Of a DNA stretch of 29,738 bases, positions 17,191 through 29,738 are shown piece after piece. How positions within the stretch are numbered: the stretch's first letter is position 1; the number at the start of each line of letters is the position of its first letter. This DNA is from a virus (Duplodnaviria; Caudoviricetes). A program made the position numbers and the translations under genes. The notes under the pieces were generated by a model that had not been told where the DNA came from, searched no databases, and saw only the letters and a list, made by a program, of their open reading frames with translations. The stretch lies in IMG/VR virus record IMGVR_UViG_3300035135_003029, positions 1-29,738 of that record, one strand, 5' to 3'.

Positions 17191-17382
17191 GGGTTTATCT
17201 TCAGTAATTAGTTCGGATTCAAATGCTTGAATTTGATGGCGCCCCCGAAATTGGGGGCTAACCATCTCAACAATAGTATGTTTTTTGTTTTCGTGCATAG
17301 TTTCAATGAGTATCTTGGCACGATGAGTGCCCCATTTTGTATGCACATAGCAATACCTATCAGGTATTGGTTTTGGTTTCAT
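17182..17382 (-). CDS. Hypothetical protein
   Basis: 66-aa ORF convergent with 16849..17190. Confidence 0.5.
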   Translation of the reverse strand: MKPKPIPDRYCYVHTKWGTHRAKILIETMHENKKHTIVEMVSPQFRGRHQIQAFESELITEDKPLN

Positions 17383-17419
17383 GACGATTTAAATTGAATT
17401 TAACTAAATTTTAATTTAA

Positions 17420-17656
17420 TTAAATTGCTAATTCTTCATGTTTGACTGGTCTATTTAATGTTATAATACAATGTAAGTCATCTACCCTTCGTAGAGAATC
17501 CAATGTATATCCATATTTGACCATTGACTTGATAAATGCGAACTTGTATTCGCGTTCTATTTCTATTGCTATCTTAGTAGGAACAGAATCAACCCCGAAA
17601 CCAGAGTACCACACGTTGTCGCTGTACTCGGAACAGACTGATAATATTGTATTCAT
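17420..17656 (-). CDS. Hypothetical protein
   Basis: ORF; likely ATG at 17656 downstream of a GTGTA motif. Confidence 0.5.
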   Translation of the reverse strand: MNTILSVCSEYSDNVWYSGFGVDSVPTKIAIEIEREYKFAFIKSMVKYGYTLDSLRRVDDLHCIITLNRPVKHEELAI

Positions 17657-18802: not shown

Positions 18803-18869
18803 TAAGTCGCTTACAGTCAACGACTTAGGCGGCGCGCGCCGGCCTAAGTACTTGATAATCAAGCACTTA
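18803..18869. repeat. 67-bp double-palindrome element, copy 1
   Basis: TAAGTCGCTTACAGTCAACGACTTA-GGCGGCGCGCGCCGGCC-TAAGTACTTGATAATCAAGCACTTA. Confidence 0.95.
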
Positions 18870-19037
18870 CGAAACATCTGTACAAGATCCGCGCCAATGC
18901 GGGCACATATAGCGCCGGCTCCGGCAGTAGGATTGTGCAATAAAATAATTCCGAAATAAATGCAAATAAGTTTGACGTGAGCTGTTTTTCTGTTTATATT
19001 GTTTTTATAGTTAATAATTAAACAAAGGAAAATTAAA

Positions 19038-19229
19038 ATGAACACATACGACAAAGGCGACATTCTCATCTCACGCGACAACAAAATCCTTGAGTACAAG
19101 GGGCAAGTTAATCACCCCGATCTCGGTATCATTGCGAAGGTGCGGATCTACCGCACAGACAGAGAAGTGGGTATCCGCTTTGCGGATGTTACAAGACATC
19201 CCTTCTTTGCTGAAACTAAAAAGTGCTAA
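19038..19229 (+). CDS. Hypothetical protein (small beta-barrel-like)
   Basis: 63 aa; AAGGA RBS and TTGACG-17-TATATT promoter upstream. Confidence 0.7.
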   Translation: MNTYDKGDILISRDNKILEYKGQVNHPDLGIIAKVRIYRTDREVGIRFADVTRHPFFAETKKC

Positions 19230-19280
19230 ATAAGCGCGATTTAATTTGACTTTAATCATTAAATAGACGATAGTAGTAAT

Positions 19281-19433
19281 ATGACAGAACAATTAGAAAC
19301 ATTCATGACAGAAGAACTCGGTATCATCGACCGCTTGGGCACAGACCCACTTGACGGGCTTGACCTCTTTGAGGACGTAGGCGGTAACGTATGGACACTT
19401 GACCAAATCATCAACGAATTTAATAACCAATGA
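19281..19433 (+). CDS. Small acidic hypothetical protein (50 aa), not in ORF track
   Basis: MTEQLETFMTEELGIIDRLGTDPLDGLDLFEDVGGNVWTLDQIINEFNNQ*; TTGACT 35 nt upstream; ATGA overlap with next gene. Confidence 0.65.
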   Translation: MTEQLETFMTEELGIIDRLGTDPLDGLDLFEDVGGNVWTLDQIINEFNNQ

Positions 19434-19654
19434 GCGCTGAAAGAGTACCATACCCCGAACTAGACTGCGCCCTTGCTATGAGTAAGGCGCGTGGCAATCT
19501 TAACTTTCTTGTTAATGTAATAAAAGAAGGATGGTGCGAAACGCACACCAAAGCGCAAGCTGTACAAGATGCACATTCTGCACTAGTAGAAGCGCAAAAA
19601 GAATACGAAAAAGTCTTGACTTTACTCAGAGAATCCACTAATGTAAATGTATGA
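19430..19654 (+). CDS. Hypothetical protein
   Basis: 74 aa; ATGA overlaps on both sides. Confidence 0.65.
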   Translation: MSAERVPYPELDCALAMSKARGNLNFLVNVIKEGWCETHTKAQAVQDAHSALVEAQKEYEKVLTLLRESTNVNV

Positions 19655-19815
19655 TAACGATTGCAAAGAATAAAAACTTCTCGAATTGGTTCGACCTTAG
19701 GGTCTTTGGTCAACTAGTAGACCAATTCAGTAACGAACAACGCGCCATGCACATGGCTAGACGTATACGTCGTAAAGAGTACCCCAAGGCTACCATTAAA
19801 CTCATAGAGCAATGA
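19651..19815 (+). CDS. Small basic hypothetical protein (54 aa), not in ORF track
   Basis: MITIAKNKNFSNWFDLRVFGQLVDQFSNEQRAMHMARRIRRKEYPKATIKLIEQ*; TTGACT-17-TAATGT-6-ATG. Confidence 0.65.
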   Translation: MITIAKNKNFSNWFDLRVFGQLVDQFSNEQRAMHMARRIRRKEYPKATIKLIEQ

Positions 19816-19882
19816 TCTTCTTAATTGTGAGCGGAATATGTTGCTCCGCCTATGTACTCACAAGGAAGCCACATTGAACTAT

Positions 19883-19904
19883 CCCCCCGAAAGGGGGGTT
19901 TTTT
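19883..19904 (+). terminator. Rho-independent terminator
   Basis: CCCCCC-GAAA-GGGGGG-TTTTTT. Confidence 0.85.
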
Positions 19905-19922
19905 GTACTACTAAAAGTTCCG

Positions 19923-19989
19923 TAAGTCCTTGAATATCAACAACTTAGGCCGGCGCGCCGGCTGTAAGTCGTTGTATAACAACAACTTA
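19923..19989. repeat. 67-bp double-palindrome element, copy 2
   Basis: TAAGTCCTTGAATATCAACAACTTA-GGCCGGCGCGCCGGCTG-TAAGTCGTTGTATAACAACAACTTA. Confidence 0.95.
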
Positions 19990-20055
19990 CGACAAAATAA
20001 AAATAATTGCCAATATGCTTGACGTCAACCCCCTTATCCATTAGGTTGTTAGTAT

Positions 20056-20178
20056 ATGAAAAACAAAGCTAAAATAAAAGTGAGGATTCCAATGGTCTTT
20101 ACTAAAGCCCGTCCTCATAAGCTAAAAAACAAGGTTCTGCCTCGCAAGGCAAAACACAAACAAAGGATATATGCATGA
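20056..20178 (+). CDS. Small very basic protein (40 aa), not in ORF track
   Basis: MKNKAKIKVRIPMVFTKARPHKLKNKVLPRKAKHKQRIYA*; TTGACG promoter at 20019; ATGA overlap with next gene. Confidence 0.6.
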   Translation: MKNKAKIKVRIPMVFTKARPHKLKNKVLPRKAKHKQRIYA

Positions 20179-20384
20179 GTAAGCACAATACTAATAACAT
20201 GGTCAAGGTAATGAAGCAACTTAAAAAGTGCCCCGACATTACCTCTATTCAGCAAACTAAAAAAGGTTACATGATACAAGCCAAATGTGGCGAGCAACAC
20301 TTGATTCACCAAGGATCAAATTGTTACCACCCTTTACGCCGTTGGTGCAAAACCTTTACTTCTCTTAAAAACTTAACATTCTAA
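20175..20384 (+). CDS. Hypothetical basic protein (HicA-like size and pattern)
   Basis: 69 aa, helix-beta3-helix-like pattern; family assignment weak. Confidence 0.55.
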   Translation: MSKHNTNNMVKVMKQLKKCPDITSIQQTKKGYMIQAKCGEQHLIHQGSNCYHPLRRWCKTFTSLKNLTF

Positions 20385-20388
20385 AAAT

Positions 20389-20706
20389 ATGAAAAAAATT
20401 ACAATCTCACTCTCTCTTCTTCTTTTCTTTTCTTCTTTCTCTTATGGTAAAGATAAGTTTCGCATTGGCGTACGTGAATTTGACACCATGTCTGATGTTA
20501 GAAAATATGTAAAAGGAGTTAAAAAGAGAATTGATGAAAGTTTCCCAAGGCACGATCTCAAGGTTGAGCTTGAAAAGGTAAACAGGAGAAGGTTTGTAAT
20601 CAATAGAGAAACAACTTTAGCTGAGTCAGGCGTGCGTGGCAATATGATGCGAATTATTCCACCACAAAACGAAGACAGATACGGAAGAAAAAAATGTGAT
20701 AAATGA
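20389..20706 (+). CDS. Hypothetical secreted protein
   Basis: Signal peptide MKKITISLSLLLFFSSFSYG. Confidence 0.6.
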   Translation: MKKITISLSLLLFFSSFSYGKDKFRIGVREFDTMSDVRKYVKGVKKRIDESFPRHDLKVELEKVNRRRFVINRETTLAESGVRGNMMRIIPPQNEDRYGRKKCDK

Positions 20707-20742
20707 CTTGACTTCCTCAACCAATTAGCTTACTTTAATAAT

Positions 20743-20925
20743 ATGACAACATTACAAGAACTCACCGAAAGAATCAACGCCCTTCAAGACAGAATTGAAG
20801 CTAACATTGAAGCCGCTGAAGCGGGTAGCATCTCAGCACGACAAACAATTATCACTTGCGAAGAAATGAAAATGGAAATTTCTGATGCCATTGATCAAAT
20901 GGGCATTAATGCTTGCTTAGTATAA
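20743..20925 (+). CDS. Hypothetical coiled-coil protein
   Basis: 60 aa; TTGACT-17-TACTTT-6-ATG. Confidence 0.7.
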   Translation: MTTLQELTERINALQDRIEANIEAAEAGSISARQTIITCEEMKMEISDAIDQMGINACLV

Positions 20926-20940
20926 CCGCCAAAGTTTACC

Positions 20941-21007
20941 TAAGTCCTTGGTAATCAGGGACTTAGGCCGGCGCGCCGGCTGTAAGTCGTTGAATATAAA
21001 CGATTTA
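20941..21007. repeat. 67-bp double-palindrome element, copy 3
   Basis: TAAGTCCTTGGTAATCAGGGACTTA-GGCCGGCGCGCCGGCTG-TAAGTCGTTGAATATAAACGATTTA. Confidence 0.95.
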
Positions 21008-21081
21008 TGAAATAAAAAATAATTCAAAATAAATGCGAATATGCTTGCTATACCCTGCCAGATGGGCTATGTTGTTTGTAT

Positions 21082-21315
21082 ATGATTAGTAAGTACTCAC
21101 ACTTCGACCGCAACGATAACGCCCTTGCAAATGAGCAAGCTCGCCAAATGGCAGAAATCAACAGGGAGATCGCCCGCACGAATCAAGCCCTCGCAGAAGA
21201 GCGCTACCTTGAGGAGCAAGCTCTAATGCAAGAGGTTCACCGCAACCACGAAGAGCGTTGGCACGATGCCTACGAAGACTTCGACTACGGCTACCATGAC
21301 CAATACGACTTTTAG
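21082..21315 (+). CDS. Hypothetical protein with acidic/aromatic tail
   Basis: Only gene between element copies 3 and 4; TTGCTA-17-TATGTT upstream. Confidence 0.65.
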   Translation: MISKYSHFDRNDNALANEQARQMAEINREIARTNQALAEERYLEEQALMQEVHRNHEERWHDAYEDFDYGYHDQYDF

Positions 21316-21317
21316 CA

Positions 21318-21384
21318 TAAGTCGTTGGTAGTCAGGCACTTAGGTGCCGCGCGCCGCCGTAAGTCGTTGAATATCAACAACTTA
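21318..21384. repeat. 67-bp double-palindrome element, copy 4 (at the convergence point)
   Basis: TAAGTCGTTGGTAGTCAGGCACTTA-GGTGCCGCGCGCCGCCG-TAAGTCGTTGAATATCAACAACTTA. Confidence 0.95.
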
Positions 21385-21393
21385 CGACAACTT

Positions 21394-21507
21394 TTACCAA
21401 AATTTCTCTTCGTTGTCGTAGTCTACCATGTCTTGATAAGCCATGTACGCAACCATTGCGGGAGTTGTCAAGAAAAAAATTGCAACTAATACTTCTAAAA
21501 TAATCAT
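21394..21507 (-). CDS. Small membrane protein (37 aa), not in ORF track
   Basis: MIILEVLVAIFFLTTPAMVAYMAYQDMVDYDNEEKFW*; ATGA overlap with upstream gene. Confidence 0.55.
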   Translation of the reverse strand: MIILEVLVAIFFLTTPAMVAYMAYQDMVDYDNEEKFW

Positions 21508-21770
21508 GAGTAAAGCCCTTTCATTTCATCGCTAATGCCAAAATCTAAATCCTCTTCATCAATAGATTCAGCGGTTGGCTTGTAATCAATTAGAGAAACT
21601 TCGTCTTCGATGTCGCACTCTTGAGCATCTAATAAGCCATGCTCGCCCAAAACTTCTTCGGACTTAATTTCCTCGATGAAGTCAGCAACTGACTTGGTGG
21701 CTGAAACCTTTTGTGAGCTTTCTGCCGCGTGTTTAATAACTGCGATTCGTTGTTCTTCTGTTAATGTCAT
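21504..21770 (-). CDS. Acidic hypothetical protein
   Basis: 88 aa, Asp/Glu-rich; TTGACT-17-TACCTT-6-ATG. Confidence 0.7.
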   Translation of the reverse strand: MTLTEEQRIAVIKHAAESSQKVSATKSVADFIEEIKSEEVLGEHGLLDAQECDIEDEVSLIDYKPTAESIDEEDLDFGISDEMKGLYS

Positions 21771-21791
21771 AATAATAAGGTAATCTAGTTT

Positions 21792-22136
21792 TTAGTGAGA
21801 GTCAACAAGTTTTTTGTTAAAATCTGCTCGCATTGCTACAAGCAAATCTTCGTGAGCTTTCCCATCCATCTCAAATTGATGCATAAGTGATGTCACTCTG
21901 TGTGGCTCTTGCCAACCTAGCACATCATCAGAAACAGATAATGGAACGAAGTTTTTATCTTCATTAAATACTGCAACTTCAAAAGTATCGGGATAACGAC
22001 CATAAAATGGTTGAAATGCTCCATCATCGTTGCCCGCAATAACCGAGAATAAATATCCATTGTCAAGTGTGAGCGATGCACTCCATCTTCTGATAGAGTC
22101 ATCGTAAGTGAATTTTAAATCATCGAAGTTTTTCAT
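21792..22136 (-). CDS. Phage hypothetical protein (FEVAVF...DDVLGW motif)
   Basis: 114 aa; TTGACA promoter upstream. Confidence 0.7.
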   Translation of the reverse strand: MKNFDDLKFTYDDSIRRWSASLTLDNGYLFSVIAGNDDGAFQPFYGRYPDTFEVAVFNEDKNFVPLSVSDDVLGWQEPHRVTSLMHQFEMDGKAHEDLLVAMRADFNKKLVDSH

Positions 22137-22169
22137 ATAATAATAAACTAAATTAGTTTGTTTTGTTTG

Positions 22170-22409
22170 TCAAGCTACTTCAGCTAAATCTTTTGCCAAT
22201 GCTCTTTCTGCATCTACTTGTTGTTGTAATAAGTTGAGTTTGTTGAGTAAACCTTTGTAGCCGATATAGTCACCACGAAAGTGACCTTTCCATACTCCGT
22301 CAACTCGTTGAAATGTTACATCCCAAGCGCTCTTGTAGTCATATGTTCTAAGTAAGCCATTAGGTAAGCGCTCAAAGTAGAATTCTTTTCCGTTGTCTTT
22401 AATTGTCAT
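22170..22409 (-). CDS. Hypothetical protein
   Basis: Likely start MTIKDNGK at 22409 (TTGACA-17-TACTTT-6-ATG). Confidence 0.65.
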   Translation of the reverse strand: MTIKDNGKEFYFERLPNGLLRTYDYKSAWDVTFQRVDGVWKGHFRGDYIGYKGLLNKLNLLQQQVDAERALAKDLAEVA

Positions 22410-22440
22410 AAGTATAAAGTAGTTTAGTTTTTGCTCTGTG

Positions 22441-22623
22441 TCAAATAGAAACACGAATAAATTCTGTGGTAATGTTGCCAACATCGGCGCGGATGAAGTG
22501 GATCAAATCTTTTTCTAATGCTTCCTCGACCACAGCAAGGTGGTCTTTGAGTTTGCTATCATAGAGCCAAATCTCTCCGTCTTGGGTTGAATTGATAAGT
22601 TCAATAAGTTCTCTTGTCGTCAT
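22441..22623 (-). CDS. Hypothetical protein
   Basis: 60 aa; TTGCTA-17-TATTGT-6-ATG. Confidence 0.65.
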   Translation of the reverse strand: MTTRELIELINSTQDGEIWLYDSKLKDHLAVVEEALEKDLIHFIRADVGNITTEFIRVSI

Positions 22624-22687
22624 ATATATACAATAAGCGAGCCGGCAACTGATAGCAAGAAAAAAAGCAATTAAGTGAAAGTTTTCG

Positions 22688-22754
22688 TAAGTCGTTGAAT
22701 ATCAGGCACTTACGCCGGCGCGCGCCGCCTAAGTCGTTGAATATCAACAACTTA
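22688..22754. repeat. 67-bp double-palindrome element, copy 5
   Basis: TAAGTCGTTGAATATCAGGCACTTA-CGCCGGCGCGCGCCGCC-TAAGTCGTTGAATATCAACAACTTA. Confidence 0.95.
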
Positions 22755-22775
22755 GGAGACTTTTTTGGGGTTGAC

Positions 22776-23504
22776 TTAGTGGGCTAAGTACGCTATACCC
22801 TTTTTGCAACCCTTAATAAAGCAGAGGTTGCAATTATGGGCTTGACAAGTCGCAAGAATTTTGCCGTCCTCGCCTTTAACGTAAGTTGCGGGGCAAACAA
22901 AATGCCCGTCTTGCTCGGCTTTTGCCTTGCTAGTATAAACCGAAGTGCCCGCGTCGAGTCCGTCTACTTGAGGGGCTGGCTCATCTACATAAATTGCGCT
23001 TGGCTTAATGCAAACGTTTTTAAGGCTAGCTAACTTTTGCAAGTGTGGAAGTTGCGAGTCGCGCTTCCATTCCCTAGTTGGAAACCAAAAGCGAATTGTT
23101 GGGAATTGCTCACAAATCTTAATCCACGCGGCAATATACTTGGGGGAAAACAAATCGCCCGAATCATGAACGCGAAACAAATCTGTGTTTGTCTTTTTGA
23201 GTTGCTTTTTGTTTCCGTGCTTGTCAAAATACTTTGCGCGAATTTGCTTGCACATCTCATCAATAAAAGTTTGCCCGTTGTCTTGGTGCAAAGACTTTGT
23301 GATAAGATCCGCCTTGCCTTGTAAACTTGCCTTGACGTTAGCAAACATATAGAAACCCTTGCAAGCGTAGCAAGAATCACAAATAAACTTTTTGCCCGCT
23401 TCTTTAATCTTTGCTAATAGCTGCGCGGCTGGGCAATACTTGAAAGCGGGAATGTTGAATGAATAGCAAGGCATCTTGCTTGGGTTGGATAGTAAGTTAA
23501 TCAT
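22776..23504 (-). CDS. Gp88-like (radical SAM-related, Cys-rich) phage protein
   Basis: SKMPCYSFNIPA, CP...CDSCYA, FRVHDSGDLFS, FWFPTRE, C-terminal CxxxxCxxC. Confidence 0.75.
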   Translation of the reverse strand: MINLLSNPSKMPCYSFNIPAFKYCPAAQLLAKIKEAGKKFICDSCYACKGFYMFANVKASLQGKADLITKSLHQDNGQTFIDEMCKQIRAKYFDKHGNKKQLKKTNTDLFRVHDSGDLFSPKYIAAWIKICEQFPTIRFWFPTREWKRDSQLPHLQKLASLKNVCIKPSAIYVDEPAPQVDGLDAGTSVYTSKAKAEQDGHFVCPATYVKGEDGKILATCQAHNCNLCFIKGCKKGIAYLAH

Positions 23505-23525
23505 AATACTAAAGTAAACTAATTT

Positions 23526-23726
23526 TTAAACTAAGGCAAACACTAAATCCTCAAAAAAATCAGGCTCTAACCCGAACTCGTCGACAAATAAAGTTTCCCA
23601 TTCAAATGGGTCACCGCCTTGATTCAAATCAAGAGCCATTTCAGAGAAAAAAGCGCTCACTTGCAATTCCGCGTCTTCAAGGCTTAAGCCGTCACGCGCC
23701 ATTAGGATTTTTACTATTCTTTGCAT
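23526..23726 (-). CDS. Acidic phage hypothetical protein (LMARDG...EFGLEPD)
   Basis: 66 aa; TTGTGT-17-TACTGT-6-ATG. Confidence 0.7.
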   Translation of the reverse strand: MQRIVKILMARDGLSLEDAELQVSAFFSEMALDLNQGGDPFEWETLFVDEFGLEPDFFEDLVFALV

Positions 23727-23791
23727 AAGTATACAGTACCACCAAACCTAACCGAACACAAGAAAAAAGTGAATTAAATCGAAAGTTGTTG

Positions 23792-23858
23792 TAACTCGTT
23801 GAATATCAACGACTTCCGCCGGCGCGATTTTCATAAGTTGTTGATTATCAAGGACTTA
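23792..23858. repeat. 67-bp double-palindrome element, copy 6 (degenerate core)
   Basis: TAACTCGTTGAATATCAACGACTTC-CGCCGGCGCGATTTTCA-TAAGTTGTTGATTATCAAGGACTTA. Confidence 0.9.
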
Positions 23859-23880
23859 CGAAAAAACTGAGGGTAAAAGC

Positions 23881-23910
23881 AAACCCCCGCCGGCGGTGCC
23901 GACGAGGGTT
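23881..23910 (-). terminator. Probable terminator hairpin
   Basis: AACCC-CCGCCGGC-GGT-GCCGACG-AGGGTT imperfect stem followed by TTTGCTTTT on the minus strand. Confidence 0.55.
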
Positions 23911-23959
23911 ATATTTAGGGGATATATATTTGCAAGCTATATATTTACGCGGCCCGTAT

Positions 23960-24115
23960 TTACAAGCTACGCTTTTCTAATTCATACAACTTTAGTAGTA
24001 GTTTATAATGACGACGACGTTCATCATGATACTTAGGAGTATTATCCCCGTACATTTCACGAACAGCTAGCTTGTGGCCAAGCTCTCTGAGCTCCATTTT
24101 TAGTGACTCTATCAT
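23960..24115 (-). CDS. Hypothetical protein
   Basis: Likely start MIESLKMEL at 24115 just after the upstream stop. Confidence 0.55.
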   Translation of the reverse strand: MIESLKMELRELGHKLAVREMYGDNTPKYHDERRRHYKLLLKLYELEKRSL

Positions 24116-24117
24116 AA

Positions 24118-24351
24118 TTAAGCTTTGTTTAAGGATACGATTCTGTCGTAACGAAAGGAACGAACTCCTTCTTTGTTGTAACACCAAGACTTAAAGCCCA
24201 CCACAGCTTTACCTTCTTGCTTGTTGCCGAATTCATTACGGTGACTGGGTTTTGATATGGTGTACATTTCAGTGTTCCCGTCTGCAGCTGTGTACACAAC
24301 TTGATAGCGGGAAATAAAAAGATTAAGAATTGACTTCAATAAGTTCTTCAT
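24118..24351 (-). CDS. Small WYL/Sm-like domain protein
   Basis: C-terminal WCYNKEGVRSFRYDRIVSL resembles the WYL RxFRxDRI motif. Confidence 0.55.
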   Translation of the reverse strand: MKNLLKSILNLFISRYQVVYTAADGNTEMYTISKPSHRNEFGNKQEGKAVVGFKSWCYNKEGVRSFRYDRIVSLNKA

Positions 24352-24568
24352 TGTTGGATCCTCCTACAGGGTTTAAGTTATAGTGATTGTAAGCATCAGT
24401 CACTTCTTGTGCTGATTCGAAACTTACAGAAATAATGTCTCGTTCATCATATGGGTGGTAAGGAGTCTCCGACTCCTCAAAGAACAATTCCCAAAGCTCA
24501 CTCGCTTCATCCCATTCGGGTAAACCTAATGGCTTACCAACACAAACAGCTTCTATGTACTTATGCAT
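24323..24568 (-). CDS. Acidic hypothetical protein
   Basis: Likely start MHKYIEAV at 24568 with a GAGGAAGAAG upstream. Confidence 0.6.
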   Translation of the reverse strand: MHKYIEAVCVGKPLGLPEWDEASELWELFFEESETPYHPYDERDIISVSFESAQEVTDAYNHYNLNPVGGSNNEELIEVNS

Positions 24569-24782
24569 TAACTTCTTCCTCTTGTTCGATGTGAATGCCA
24601 AAGTGGTGTGCTAGCTCAGACAAGCTATCTTTAGAGCCTTTGTCTGAGAAGAAGTTGAAAGCAAAGTTTACCAACTTTTCGCGCTCGCTTTCTCTCATAT
24701 GTTTAATCTCTTCGTATATGTCGAAGATTGTGCAATTCCAATTCCAACTCTCTACCATATCTTCCATTTCTTGTTTTGTCAT
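24561..24782 (-). CDS. Hypothetical protein
   Basis: 73 aa; AGGAG RBS. Confidence 0.7.
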   Translation of the reverse strand: MTKQEMEDMVESWNWNCTIFDIYEEIKHMRESEREKLVNFAFNFFSDKGSKDSLSELAHHFGIHIEQEEEVNA

Positions 24783-24784
24783 AA

Positions 24785-24979
24785 TTATTCTCCTTGTAGT
24801 AACTTTTTGAATTGATCGTAAACTTTTTGTTTACTGCCCTTGAGTCCAAACTCCTCCTTAATAATAGAGTAGCAACTTCTGCCCCTAGTAAGCCTAAGAC
24901 CCATGATTTCTCCTTGCAATCCTTTAAGCAAAGTACGTTGACGGAATGATTCGATTTGTTTGGGTGTGTCTAATATCAT
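24785..24979 (-). CDS. Phage hypothetical protein
   Basis: 64 aa; GGAG RBS; ATGA overlap with upstream gene. Confidence 0.7.
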   Translation of the reverse strand: MILDTPKQIESFRQRTLLKGLQGEIMGLRLTRGRSCYSIIKEEFGLKGSKQKVYDQFKKLLQGE

Positions 24980-25203
24980 AGTGATGCTCCCTCCATTGAG
25001 CCGTTAAGGCATAGTTCGTGTTCTAGTGATTGTAGGTCAAGTATGAGGTCACTTAATGCTTCCTCTGCTGATTGAACTGTGAATCCATCTACGCCAAGTT
25101 CTTTGCCGCGCTCGACATTGATTCTATCCATTGCATCGGCATACCTCATGTTGCCTTCGCAAAGTTGGCGAATGGTTTGTATTATCTTTTCTTGTGTCAT
25201 CAT
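24976..25203 (-). CDS. Hypothetical protein
   Basis: 75 aa; TTGACA-17-TATATT-6-ATG. Confidence 0.7.
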   Translation of the reverse strand: MMTQEKIIQTIRQLCEGNMRYADAMDRINVERGKELGVDGFTVQSAEEALSDLILDLQSLEHELCLNGSMEGASL

Positions 25204-25217
25204 ATAAACAATATAGC

Positions 25218-25421
25218 TTACCTTAGGGCTGTTGTCAACTCATTTTGAAACTTTTTTGCTTCGACTAAATCTTTTAGGTCAAAGCTAATAGAAACAAGGT
25301 TGTCGTTAATGTTTTTCATGACCTTGACGAGATCCTCCATGTTTGCATGTCTACGGTGTTCTAGCATCTCATCACTGAGTCCGTCAATGGCGAATTTAAT
25401 TGCTTTTAATTCTTCTTTCAT
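25218..25421 (-). CDS. Hypothetical coiled-coil protein
   Basis: 67 aa, abuts upstream stop. Confidence 0.65.
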   Translation of the reverse strand: MKEELKAIKFAIDGLSDEMLEHRRHANMEDLVKVMKNINDNLVSISFDLKDLVEAKKFQNELTTALR

Positions 25422-25616
25422 TTAATCTGTCTTTACCTCCTCTAATAATGAGTCTAATTGTAGTTCTGCTCTATACTTAAGCTCGGTTGGATCGAGAATA
25501 AATATGTTGCCGTTGATATGTAATGTGAATTGATTATTGTCAGTTGTGACTGAGTATTGGTTTTCCGTAAACCAATCTTTTGCATACTTAATTGTTGTTT
25601 GTGATAGGTTGTTCAT
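25422..25616 (-). CDS. Hypothetical protein
   Basis: 64 aa; ATGA overlap with upstream gene. Confidence 0.6.
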   Translation of the reverse strand: MNNLSQTTIKYAKDWFTENQYSVTTDNNQFTLHINGNIFILDPTELKYRAELQLDSLLEEVKTD

Positions 25617-26014
25617 GGTATGTAGGCGGTTACTTGGTTGTGTGATAATAAAACTTCATCTGCATAGTATACAAACTTCTCGGTATCCTTGTCAACAAAA
25701 GTCTCATACTTGTATGGATTATATGTTACCTCAGTTGCGGGTCTGTCTGTGTTTACATTCTCGGCATCTTGAAGATAGCCCTTCACAAAAGCATGAACAT
25801 TCTTGCGCTTCTCACGAAGAACCTTTTCTCTGCCCTTGATGTCAACATGAAAATAGCAATCCCAAAGTCCGATACTATCGCCTTGTGGGATGTGAGCCTT
25901 AACTAAACCATGTTGCTTGATGCTCCAACAATCCTTGTGTAGATTCTTGTAAACATATACAGGACGATTCTTCTTGATGATGTATCGTGGGTCGTGTTGG
26001 TTTCTCTTAATCAT
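25613..26014 (-). CDS. Conserved-looking phage hypothetical protein (VYxNLHKxCWS...KNVHAFVxG...YNPYK)
   Basis: Likely start MIKRNQ at 26014 (TTGCGG-17-TATTGT-6-ATG); motif recalled from many phages. Confidence 0.75.
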   Translation of the reverse strand: MIKRNQHDPRYIIKKNRPVYVYKNLHKDCWSIKQHGLVKAHIPQGDSIGLWDCYFHVDIKGREKVLREKRKNVHAFVKGYLQDAENVNTDRPATEVTYNPYKYETFVDKDTEKFVYYADEVLLSHNQVTAYIP

Positions 26015-26079
26015 ATAACTACAATAAGGTAGTTTCTTAATTACCGCAAGAACAAAATGCAATTAAATGCATTTTGTTG

Positions 26080-26146
26080 TAAGTGTCTGTATATCAATGA
26101 CTTACGGCTCGCGCGCCGGCATAAGTCGTTGAATATCAACAACTTA
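26080..26146. repeat. 67-bp double-palindrome element, copy 7
   Basis: TAAGTGTCTGTATATCAATGACTTA-CGGCTCGCGCGCCGGCA-TAAGTCGTTGAATATCAACAACTTA. Confidence 0.95.
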
Positions 26147-26161
26147 CGGAAAGTTTCGGGC

Positions 26162-26192
26162 AAAAATAAAACCCCTCCCCGAAGGGAGGGGT
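26162..26192 (-). terminator. Rho-independent terminator
   Basis: Minus strand ACCCCTCCC-TTCG-GGGAGGGGT-TTTATTTTT, downstream of the DUF932-like gene. Confidence 0.85.
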
Positions 26193-26205
26193 ATGACACA
26201 ACTAC

Positions 26206-27075
26206 TTACACCTCAACCAATTCGTTCTCTACCACTTCCATGTCAAGAACATTCTCGACATGATTGTGAACATTGAAGTCTACGTACCCATCAAGTAATG
26301 AGTGTAGCGCATCAGAGCGATTTGGGAGTTGAACAAGATTACCTTTGTATACCTCTGTAAAGGCATTATAAAGGGAGTTGACATTTCTGTCGTGAAATTC
26401 GGGGTGATCGGATGATTCCCATTGATTCACAACATCAAGGAGTTTGGTTTTAGGCAAAGCACCCATTTGAACCGCTTTGACAATTAAGTCATTTGCATAG
26501 ACATTTCCAATAGAACGATTTTTGTATGCATCAATACGAGCATCTTGACCATTCCAAAAGCCAAACAACTTACCAAGCGCACGATTGATGGTGAAGTTGA
26601 GATCGTCTAAAATGTTGCGAGTGTGACGACGCGCAAGTTTGATTGTATTGGTGAAGATAAGATTGTCACAGACGAAAGGTGCATCACCTGCACACAATCC
26701 CGCAGGGAATTTTTTGTCGTGAGAGTTACGAATACCAACCACACAACCACGATCAGTAGAAACACGATTGACGTGATCAATGGCAAACAAACCAAAGTAA
26801 TGATTGTCGTGAGAAGCTAATGAGTGAATCTCATCTTGAATGCGGAAACCTTGAGAGGTTAAGGCATTGCGAGTGCGATCAATCAATTCAGCATGAGCGA
26901 TTGGTTGATAAGAAATGGTGCGCTCACCATTGGCATTTTCTTTTTTGCGGAACTCAACAGGTGGAGTTGGTACAGCGCGAATCTCGTCAATATCGTAGAG
27001 TTTGTGATTACCTCCGCAAATGTGCAAGTTAACAGATTTGTGAGGAGCGGTATTGGTGTTTTCTTCAATGTTCAT
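26206..27075 (-). CDS. DUF932-like family protein
   Basis: YQPIAHAELI, GIRNSHD, FVCDNL, RRHT, SLYNAFTE motifs. Confidence 0.75.
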   Translation of the reverse strand: MNIEENTNTAPHKSVNLHICGGNHKLYDIDEIRAVPTPPVEFRKKENANGERTISYQPIAHAELIDRTRNALTSQGFRIQDEIHSLASHDNHYFGLFAIDHVNRVSTDRGCVVGIRNSHDKKFPAGLCAGDAPFVCDNLIFTNTIKLARRHTRNILDDLNFTINRALGKLFGFWNGQDARIDAYKNRSIGNVYANDLIVKAVQMGALPKTKLLDVVNQWESSDHPEFHDRNVNSLYNAFTEVYKGNLVQLPNRSDALHSLLDGYVDFNVHNHVENVLDMEVVENELVEV

Positions 27076-27113
27076 AATATCTATAATATAGTAGTTGTTG
27101 TTGTTGTCAATAG

Positions 27114-27353
27114 TTAATTTTTATAAATTCTGTTTTCTTTTCCTTCGAACATAGTCTCAAAGGCATAGGCTTTTTTTGCAACCTCATCAATATAAGCGCG
27201 AATCAAACTATAACCAATTAAGTCACGTGTGTCAAGGTCTAATTTGTTAAGGACATTCCACTCAAGCATATCCATTGCAAGTTGAACTCCCTCCATTGAA
27301 TCTAAATTGTCAAAGTTGGGAGCTTTGTTTTCATAATCTTCGTTTAACTTCAT
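27114..27353 (-). CDS. Hypothetical protein
   Basis: 79 aa; TTGCGG-17-TAGTAT-6-ATG. Confidence 0.7.
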   Translation of the reverse strand: MKLNEDYENKAPNFDNLDSMEGVQLAMDMLEWNVLNKLDLDTRDLIGYSLIRAYIDEVAKKAYAFETMFEGKENRIYKN

Positions 27354-27418
27354 ATATACATACTAGGCTAGTTTTTAAAAAACCGCAAGAAAAAAGTGAA
27401 TTAAAATGAAAGTTGTCA

Positions 27419-27485
27419 TAAGTTGTTGATAGTCAGGCATTTATGCCGGCGCGCGCCGCCTAACCCCTTGGTAGTCAACGACTTA
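27419..27485. repeat. 67-bp double-palindrome element, copy 8
   Basis: TAAGTTGTTGATAGTCAGGCATTTA-TGCCGGCGCGCGCCGCC-TAACCCCTTGGTAGTCAACGACTTA. Confidence 0.93.
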
Positions 27486-27727
27486 CGAAAGTTTTTTCAA
27501 TTTAATTTGAAATAATTTTAATTTAATTTAATTTAAGTGTCAGGTATCATATTTGTATTGTATTTGATTGTTATTTAATTGATATCTAGTCCTTAAGGTA
27601 TTCTTTAGCTAATATAGTAAAAAAGGATAAGGTCCCTAGAATGAGTATTGATTCTATTGCCATGTATATTCATGATAGTAATTATAGTATATGTGGGGAT
27701 CTAGAAGTAGACCCACCGGGTTTTCGG

Positions 27728-28018
27728 TTAAGCTCTTAAGCCTTCAATTGCTTGCTTAACAGCAAATGGAACGAAAGGCGAAGTTGCCATTCCATCTAAT
27801 GTTCTTGCTGGAATCGATACATCACGAACATAGTCGCCCGTTTCCTCGACATATTCCATTCTAGCTTTAGTGTCGCAGGCTTGAGCTATATATCTGTCGC
27901 GCCCGCATCTAATAAGAAGGGGGAGGTTGGGCATCTCAACTTCTAATGAATCGAGATCTTGCGCTGTAACGAAACCAAATTGTTGTTTGGAGAGAACTTT
28001 TAATAATGTGTTAATCAT
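27728..28018 (-). CDS. Hypothetical protein
   Basis: Likely start MINTLL at 28018 (TTGACA-17-TATTGT-6-ATG). Confidence 0.7.
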   Translation of the reverse strand: MINTLLKVLSKQQFGFVTAQDLDSLEVEMPNLPLLIRCGRDRYIAQACDTKARMEYVEETGDYVRDVSIPARTLDGMATSPFVPFAVKQAIEGLRA

Positions 28019-28055
28019 AAAAATACAATAATGGATCATGCGTGGTTTGTCAAAT

Positions 28056-28092
28056 AAAAAAACCCCGACCTAGCAGAGGCACTAGATCGGGG
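28056..28092 (-). terminator. Rho-independent terminator closing the candidate ncRNA
   Basis: Minus strand CCCCGATCTAG-TGCCTCTG-CTAGGTCGGGG-TTTTTTT. Confidence 0.85.
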
Positions 28093-28432
28093 CTGAACGA
28101 TTGGCGAGAAAATAGATGTGGGGAGGGACTACTGAATACCCTCAACTTTCGGCGTGAACATCAGTTCATTGGTTAACCTACTCGAACTACACTTGGATTG
28201 GGTCATCCTACCTCAGACATTTGTCCATCGGCACTCCACCACAGAGAAGCATATACCTTACCCCGCACACGAAGGGGTATTCGGTCACCCACAGGAAGGA
28301 TTATAAGCCCTTCCAAAGTTTATAGAGCAAGTCGGCGCCCGATACTCAGTTGCCAACTTATTTGCTCCAAATTAAAATGTTAAAGATCAATTTTATTTTA
28401 TTTAATTGAGTTTGGTTCTCAATTTTGATTAT
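28056..28432 (-). ncRNA. Candidate structured non-coding RNA (family unknown)
   Basis: Consensus promoter, leader hairpin, boxA-like TGATCTTTAACA, several GC-rich hairpins, no minus-strand ORF >=60 aa, terminator. Confidence 0.65.
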
Positions 28433-28438
28433 TTATAT

Positions 28439-28467
28439 ATTATACTATTTATCTTCTGAATTGTCAA
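28439..28467 (-). promoter_or_regulatory. Perfect consensus sigma70 promoter
   Basis: TTGACA-attcagaagataaatag(17)-TATAAT on the minus strand. Confidence 0.85.
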
Positions 28468-28750
28468 GTAAAACTTTAATTCTTTCGTAAATATCTTCTA
28501 CATTGAATTCGTGATAATAATCTACATTGTCTTCTCTGAAATATACTTGATACAACTCATCATCACCTTCAACCTTGATTCTTGGGGTCACTGGGGCTTT
28601 GGTGTTGTATCTATCTGCATATTCTTCCCTAGTAATCTTCTCTATTTCGTATCCATCATTAATAAGACGATCAACATAGGGTTCAACAATACCACATGGG
28701 GGGCATTTTCCCTTACTCTTATCAAAATATATATAATAACCTTTTTTCAT
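28445..28750 (-). CDS. Thioredoxin/glutaredoxin-like protein
   Basis: CPPC after a beta-strand, later TPRI cis-Pro-like motif. Confidence 0.5.
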   Translation of the reverse strand: MKKGYYIYFDKSKGKCPPCGIVEPYVDRLINDGYEIEKITREEYADRYNTKAPVTPRIKVEGDDELYQVYFREDNVDYYHEFNVEDIYERIKVLLDNSEDK

Positions 28751-28756
28751 GTATAT

Positions 28757-28954
28757 TTATACACATTTTTTGGCTAACCTCAATGCCCTTTGTGCTTGTA
28801 TTTCTTTAAGTCTTTTATCTGCCTCCATTTGTTGTGCGATTATACTATCTTCGACTACTGAGCCGAAGTTGGCAAACTTTGCGCCACGAATGTAGTGACC
28901 ATTCTTGACATTGTTCATAATAGAGGTTGCTTGGGCACATTTAGCGAGATTCAT
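28757..28954 (-). CDS. Hypothetical protein
   Basis: 65 aa; AAAGGAA RBS. Confidence 0.65.
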   Translation of the reverse strand: MNLAKCAQATSIMNNVKNGHYIRGAKFANFGSVVEDSIIAQQMEADKRLKEIQAQRALRLAKKCV

Positions 28955-29075
28955 AACTTTCCTTTCGTTGGTGATTAATAATATAGAACTACTATAAGGG
29001 GGTAATAGAATAAAGTCAACAATTAATTTGAATTTCTTTAATTTAAATCAAATTTAATTTGAATTAAAACATAAA

Positions 29076-29393
29076 TCATTGATTATCAACATCTTCAGTA
29101 GTTTGCCCTGCCTCAGCTAATAGCTTATCTTGTAGCATATCATTAACATAGTATGTGTTGTTGAATATGCCTGTGGCGCGCTTACCTTCGTTGGTAATCT
29201 TATTTAACTCAGACTTGATAGCAGTTATTTCGTTATTTGCGAGTTCCTCGATCTTGTTTGCACTAATCTTCTCTCCTGTTTTCTTATTTACAAGAGAATC
29301 GTTTGCATTTAAATCGGCGCGCATTCTCTTTATTTCAGAACGTATATGTAAAATATCGTCCAACAATCTATTTATGTCTTTTGCAATACTCAT
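29076..29393 (-). CDS. Hypothetical coiled-coil protein
   Basis: Likely ATG 29393, TTGACA 35 nt upstream. Confidence 0.65.
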   Translation of the reverse strand: MSIAKDINRLLDDILHIRSEIKRMRADLNANDSLVNKKTGEKISANKIEELANNEITAIKSELNKITNEGKRATGIFNNTYYVNDMLQDKLLAEAGQTTEDVDNQ

Positions 29394-29476
29394 ACCAATC
29401 ACTATATGTGTTATTTCGCCAATGTCAAATAAAATTTCAATAAATTTATTTCAAAATAATTACATTTAAATTTAAT

Positions 29477-29689
29477 TTAAGTTATTTCGCTATAATTCAT
29501 TTGCAAATCAAATGGTGGAAATAGCAATATCATATTTGGGTGCATGAAGATCGCAGTTCGGGGCGCAACATTATTCTCTATTATCTCTATATCTTCAACC
29601 ATGTACTCTTCTGAGTCCAATAGATTGCTAAAACCCTCATCATTATCCATCCAATACTCTACATACTCGTCATATTGGTTTTGGTTCAT
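29477..29689 (-). CDS. Acidic hypothetical protein
   Basis: 70-aa ORF. Confidence 0.55.
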   Translation of the reverse strand: MNQNQYDEYVEYWMDNDEGFSNLLDSEEYMVEDIEIIENNVAPRTAIFMHPNMILLFPPFDLQMNYSEIT

Positions 29690-29738
29690 CTTATTTAAGT
29701 TTATTTCACTCGAAATTAATTCAAATTTAGTTAAATTA

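Follow-up and report, generated by a model that had tools for sequence, protein, structure and literature searches.

The window, by which we mean the whole 29,738-nt stretch of phage DNA analysed, carries on its minus strand a manA RNA (Rfam RF01745) that is already catalogued; what sets it apart is its stand-alone layout, with a boxA-like leader, a slot for hairpin cassettes and an intrinsic terminator. The locus forms a self-contained non-coding unit in a region of small genes that have promoters of their own, and we are confident that it stands alone. We think it probable that manA is here the gene of its own non-coding operon in a large aquatic phage, and that the RNA acts in trans and not as a switch of the next gene.

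manA became a riboswitch candidate in 2010 and has stayed an orphan since. The available part of Weinberg 2010 (PMC2864571) lists it, for marine metagenomes and cyanophages, as cis-regulatory and probably a riboswitch, and places it in the 5' UTRs of metabolic, ibpA and photosynthesis genes, both in T4-like cyanophages and in gamma-proteobacteria. The same cis-regulatory, probable-riboswitch view is repeated in the accessible part of PMC9964418. A 2026 preprint (10.64898/2026.07.01.735769; available in part) added RNA-only cages with no attached biology, reporting that manA forms octamers, decamers and a pentamer-based 60-mer cage through kissing loops. All of that work was done in vitro, manA keeps its label of putative cis-regulatory element there, and the words 'in vivo', 'circular' and 'terminator' are absent from its main text as available. 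In the open-access literature, supplements largely outside, we found no account of a boxA-led or circular phage manA. The locus family described here argues that manA, at least in this setting, is a free, processed RNA.

The structured RNA is manA

The core at 28113..28314 (minus strand) matches the full manA model (positions 1-192) with 71.1 bits, against a gathering score of 55.2, and an E value of 2.1e-16. The manA cut-off was also passed by 40 of 40 relatives scanned, in which no other Rfam family except tRNA was found. Within the window's unit no other family came near a gathering score, tRNA, tmRNA, RNase P and SRP RNA included, in agreement with the earlier note, which had recognised none of these four. 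That note had proposed a novel structured RNA of ~300-370 nt and had held that an Rfam hit would remove its novelty. Because manA matches over the full model, a new RNA class is ruled out, while the identification as a structured RNA stands. Nor is the locus a single RNA of that size; it is a small operon of leader, cassette hairpin, ~204-nt manA and terminator. The wider proposal, of a structured RNA that is phage-borne and non-coding, has a promoter of its own and carries a conserved boxA-like leader, is supported across relatives, and every element that had been picked out on the minus strand is there.

Taken between its predicted start and the U run, the unit is 377 nt long and folds better than each of 100 shuffled versions (z -3.1), and the GC-richer non-coding stretch noticed earlier is borne out by a GC content of 0.495 at 28100-28299 versus 0.27 at 28300-28499. 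A small protein, which had been named as an alternative explanation of the region, was rejected: the longest sense stop-free stretch is 38 codons, no sense frame is open across the core in any of 66 loci, and core lengths among relatives vary modulo 3. With RF01745 the locus shares the full-length match, the conserved loops, the multi-stem fold and the aquatic phage setting; it differs in being a closed transcription unit with a boxA-like leader, a cassette slot and a terminator.

Source phage and relatives

The source contig is a virus record that is 21% complete and carries a terminase, PhoH and a sigma-factor-like gene. It belongs to a group of phages of ~130-210 kb whose terminase reaches at most 25% to cultured relatives, none of them close. 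Direct blastn of the stretch against 50,697 phage records returned no relative. Pattern scans yielded two manA groups, the window's type and a cyanophage type that often sits among tRNAs. The 5' pattern gave 168 matches. In 73 of them a script did not find the 3' motif or the closing stem; these, which are chance matches, truncated contigs or variants, were removed, and the remainder resolved into 66 distinct manA cores. The locus L068/L167, which is 99.98% identical to the window, was not counted as independent. Across these 66 the layout is kept: sigma-70 promoter, hairpin, boxA-like site, slot, manA and terminator.

The host was not reached by searches with the terminase and PhoH or with the pyrophosphatase of the complete relative G002. 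A genome scan with an extended boxA-like motif gave 20 matches, none beside rRNA, and likewise no host; one of the 20 is a binned phage contig with manA.

Promoter, leader hairpin and boxA-like site

The unit begins with a sigma-70 consensus promoter on the minus strand (-35 at 28467-28462, -10 at 28444-28439), which matches at 12 of 12 positions with a 17-nt spacer, confirming the perfect TTGACA-17-TATAAT read from the sequence earlier. It is the sole 12/12 site among 39 promoter-like matches in 20000-29738, and predicts a transcription start at about 28432. Of the 52 relatives with at least 450 nt upstream, 49 have a promoter-like site ahead of the boxA-like motif, and the loci that keep a near-consensus promoter have manA 62-97% identical to that of the window. 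Behind the promoter lies a leader hairpin (28404..28424, minus strand; z -7.4) followed by an A-rich spacer. This is the AATTGAG/CTCAATT hairpin of the earlier note; its TGAGAA..CTCA form recurs in 48 of 52 relatives, and it is boxB-like by position.

The boxA-like element that had been proposed at 28378..28389 (minus strand) is present as TGATCTTTAACA, and 64 of the 66 distinct loci have it; one of the two without it has only 28 nt upstream. The site matches E. coli boxA at 11 of 12 positions and its first 8 letters are those of B. subtilis boxA, as given in the available part of PMC13753749, and either sequence may not be that of the host. Its invariant letters are those common to the two bacterial boxA sequences. 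The motif pattern was tuned on the manA loci themselves, and we also ran the search in reverse. There, 47 viral loci match the leader pattern and a script re-found 41 distinct ones; manA follows in each of the 38 that have a promoter (28 by script and 10 by eye, two of the latter cut by a contig end), and the 3 without a promoter lie in other sequence, not before manA.

Elsewhere in the loci the motif occurs 3 times in 432,614 letters. Genome-wide the 12-mer is not enriched, with 0-3 copies versus 1-5 for a reversed control; therefore only the position of the motif is informative. The site lies mostly ~71-91 nt behind the -35, while its distance to manA ranges from 9 to 317 nt. We found it before 0 of 6 tRNA genes checked and before 0 of 13 cyanophage-type manA RNAs, and the latter show that manA does not need it. 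The arrangement resembles the rrn leader antitermination system (PMC13753749, available in part) in having a strong promoter, a 5' hairpin and a boxA-like 12-mer before an untranslated stable RNA. It differs in being phage-borne and in standing before manA and tmRNA and not before tRNAs, and Nus binding is here putative. In the same source, as far as available, boxA is known also before suhB and CRISPR arrays.

Covariation of the manA fold

The alignment comprised 37 cores under 92% identity, out of the 66. Its 58 named pairs are paired in 93.6% of cells, against 39-50% in slid controls, and 30 of them show double-sided changes, a level that 0 of 500 shuffles reach. Compensatory changes across homologues, the check that had been suggested for a structured RNA, are thus present in the manA fold. 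The stems GGAAGG/CCTTCC, TACCCC/GGGGTA and GAGGG/CCCTC, all listed from the sequence beforehand, covary among relatives. The P1 hairpin (28294..28314, minus strand) has double changes in 4 of 7 pairs. The P3 loop pairs at long range on the same strand (28271-28267 with 28157-28153), with double changes in 4 of 5 pairs and 97.8% pairing in the 37 sequences; the top covarying pair of the whole alignment, 28271 with 28153, belongs to this helix.

Three other proposed pairings needed amendment. The GAGCAA/TTGCTC stem is present, but outside the manA core, in a separate cassette hairpin (28368-28324). The TGTGGG/CCCACA long-range pairing is present and invariant and spans 177 nt (28293-28117), not ~190. 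The TGAAC/GTTCA match is also present, but it has 1 double change and its two strands are overlapped by better supported pairings, the P3-loop helix and the loop-loop match described below; it may therefore not be the real pairing.

That loop-loop complementarity, a candidate kissing loop on the minus strand (28165-28161 with 28135-28131), has 4 nearly invariant core pairs and 1 double change, which alone is weak evidence. Loop pairs that we assign, under a putative loop numbering, to the L3-L8', L8-L9' and L5-L7' contacts of the cryo-EM manA oligomers (10.64898/2026.07.01.735769, available in part) are present here as complementary sequences. Of these mapped contacts L3-L8' covaries strongly, L8-L9 is invariant and L5-L7 is only 67.6% paired in the alignment, patterns that do not distinguish contacts within a molecule from contacts between molecules. 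In the loop after P6, a one-base deletion at window position 28203, seen in the RNA and in other runs, is a common strain variant.

A slot for exchangeable hairpin cassettes

The slot between the boxA-like site and manA is either empty or filled with 1-3 closed hairpin modules. The modules are of several recurring, interchangeable types separated by short U-rich linkers, and none is in Rfam; content is highly variable among loci. The slot yields several uncatalogued small RNA motifs. The window's own cassette, which we call module A (28324..28368, minus strand), is a bulged stem with the conserved apex CTGAGTATCGG and matches no Rfam family. It occurs in 11 of 66 loci. Its 12 inner pairs are paired in 100% of these 11 sequences and 3 of the pairs have double changes, which 0 of 500 shuffles equal; the count is confined to the inner pairs, the outer stem being out of register between two subtypes. 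A scan for module A found 6 viral loci, each directly before a manA start. A pairing of the cassette apex with the last loop of manA was considered and dropped; the apex is self-paired in 11 of 11 sequences.

At least eight other cassette types recur, each with inner motifs that are conserved and a closing stem that varies (in slots of L155, L161, L162, L190, L193, L197, L217, L224, L234 and L264), and several of them end, as judged by eye, in a T-loop-like word. A GUAA-loop version of a similar apex caps intergenic hairpins in the unrelated-looking phage contigs L410, L411, L415 and L419.

The boxA-like core and the apex motif recur at tmRNA genes

A tmRNA is present in all 4 complete relatives; in 3 of them a boxA-like core stands immediately ahead of the gene, and in one it is lacking. 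With 6 of 6 additional loci of related tmRNAs, the core immediately precedes 9 of 10 such genes in related phages. There the last letter of the site lies a few bases short of the mature 5' end. The module A apex recurs in the tmRNA of G002, where it is part of a ~30-nt insert without counterpart in the three remaining complete relatives; the apex is also present in 6 further phage tmRNAs that were picked by that pattern. On its own the insert folds no better than shuffles (z +0.3). An apex motif that is shared and movable between the slot and tmRNA tentatively suggests a protein-binding role. Some related phage tmRNA genes have unusually long tag frames, in part with the apex-bearing ~30-nt insert; long-tag loci are L405:1501-1897 (minus strand), L403, L404, L402, L409, L412, L414 and L416-L418.

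Terminator and downstream gene

The strong terminator of the earlier note holds up as an intrinsic terminator (28056..28094, minus strand; stem 28094-28061) with a 15-pair stem and a U run (z -5.6). It lies at most 160 nt downstream of manA in 52 of 58 relatives. The promoter of the next gene (28025..28053, minus strand) starts right behind its U run and serves a small ORF (27728..28018, minus strand; ATG 28018, likely leaderless) that is not part of the RNA unit and has no Pfam or PHROG match. Among the relatives a -35/-10 pair follows 45 of 52 terminators, and in 38 of these 45 an ATG sits 6-7 nt behind that -10, a spacing typical of leaderless messages. The description of manA as the 5'-UTR of a metabolic gene does not fit this arrangement of a terminator, a separate promoter and a gene without recognised function.

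In line with its cis-regulatory label in Rfam, manA could act as an attenuator or riboswitch, using the intrinsic terminator to regulate the gene downstream. The order of an aptamer-like domain and a terminator, together with the 2010 rating of manA in the available part of PMC2864571, would fit such a switch, as would the same downstream gene family in 37 of 56 loci, a synteny that also counts against the stand-alone reading. In the other 19 of the 56, however, the downstream gene differs, and the ends of the RNA contigs described below fit an excised RNA. We found no conserved antiterminator: the 5' arm of the terminator pairs with manA better than shuffled arms do in 1 of 52 loci (p<=0.05), and the best sites are scattered. 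Because the next gene is self-promoted and leaderless (38 of 45) and the antiterminator appears in one locus of 52, the riboswitch reading fails here, and we give it very little credence.

Some loci have further conserved structured elements between manA and the terminator (L158, L193 and L251, behind manA; L194, L234 and L248; L256; L359), with no Rfam match in those scanned. Likely leaderless small genes, with an ATG 6-7 nt behind a consensus -10, occur elsewhere too, for example at window positions 29402, 28018 and 27075; of the promoter-like sites, 5 of 9 in the window and 13 of 48 in G002 show this geometry.

Candidate RNA ends and a possible circle

Parts of the stretch are contained in 20 RNA runs. 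We examined 8 of 24 listed public runs, as contigs, which show neither strand nor level; runs of small share were left out of the naming of habitats. Run X1, an environmental RNA data set, contains a 200-nt contig of depth 661 that is identical to the window save for one gap. It runs from 28182 to 28114 and then, with no extra letter, from 28317 to 28186, a head-to-tail joint with 69 letters on its shorter side. The putative mature RNA of ~204 nt would thus extend over 28114..28317 (minus strand), with both ends before WUU. The RNase E core motif is RN|WUU (PMC5222698, available in part). This motif precedes manA in 56 of 65 loci, and in 61 of 66 the closing stem is followed after 2-3 nt by WTT (TTT itself having been the search anchor); the X1 joint falls exactly at these RNase-E-like places. 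Positions 28317 and 28114 are candidate exact ends for a native construct, and the joint raises a testable circular form.

A contig of depth 3 in run X7 joins the cassette hairpin to manA in linear order. Contig stops at 28313 (X2, X3, X8 and X20) were rejected as 5' ends because they fit a graph branch 30 letters into a segment common to many strains. Contig holes prove nothing, and the uncovered flanking genes, leader and terminator in X1 were given no weight. The earlier suggestion of a highly expressed RNA may be right, on the contig depth in this one run.

The X1 joint is possibly a circle or a library artefact. Mature manA might be a covalently closed circle, made by ligating the nuclease-cut ends and stabilised by its circularity, and we hold this as a tentative reading that is rather unlikely to be correct. 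It would explain a joint at that depth with one gap, and in the fold the two ends lie side by side, with P1 stacked on the closing stem. The DNA of manA contains no such junction among 419 loci; tandem DNA copies were rejected as its source, the one junction-like string in those loci lying outside manA and none of them having two manA cores. Yet the joint is found in 1 of 8 runs and missing from the other 7, and a contig gives no share of joined molecules, so that a rare template switch would assemble if the linear ends had no other continuation. RNA ligases of the RtcB, Rnl1 or Rnl2 families were also not matched in the 4 complete relatives (the Rnl1 search being without a positive control).

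Proposed mode of action

Host polymerase would likely transcribe a ~377-nt precursor, which is likely trimmed to a stable ~204-nt RNA. The boxA-like site probably loads host NusB/S10 and would thereby protect this RNA, which is not translated, from Rho or help it to fold. With somewhat more assurance we propose that a nuclease of the RNase E type cuts the U-rich linkers, freeing manA and the cassette hairpins. Chances seem even that loop-loop pairings then build oligomers, as seen in vitro for other manA RNAs. The prediction is that manA works in trans, either as a scaffold that assembles itself or as a protein decoy. Its function could conceivably be to titrate or decoy a host protein or defence factor early in infection, an assignment that we make with some reserve; no target or partner protein of the RNA came to light. 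The most far-reaching version, in which an rRNA-style operon yields a circular, cage-forming manA plus exchangeable hairpin RNAs, one of them grafted into tmRNA, as a variable decoy arsenal against host factors, is speculative and we think it unlikely.

Two other views of the unit bear on this scheme. Instead of loading Nus factors, the boxA-like site could direct how stable-RNA precursors are processed or folded. The site is rich in U and stops just short of the mature 5' end of related tmRNAs, and in empty-slot loci it lies about 10 nt before manA, as a processing signal might. Its position is nevertheless fixed to the promoter and 5' hairpin and not to manA, from which its distance varies over the 9 to 317 nt given above, and its invariant letters are those that the E. 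coli and B. subtilis boxA sequences have in common; we judge the processing role to be a minority prospect. The variability of cassette content would also be expected of a selfish or neutral RNA array with no role in infection, but the dense compensatory changes in the manA fold and the near-consensus promoter kept across diverged manA loci weigh against it, and we regard such an array as extremely improbable.

Repeats elsewhere in the window

The small-gene region is punctuated by a 58-nt repeat (family D2) in which palindromes flank a GC-rich core, present in 8 copies at 18817-27490 of the window, for example at 27433-27490. AT-rich repeated tracts (family D3) lie upstream of promoters at window positions 27488-27538, 29009-29069, 29432-29492 and 17381-17431.
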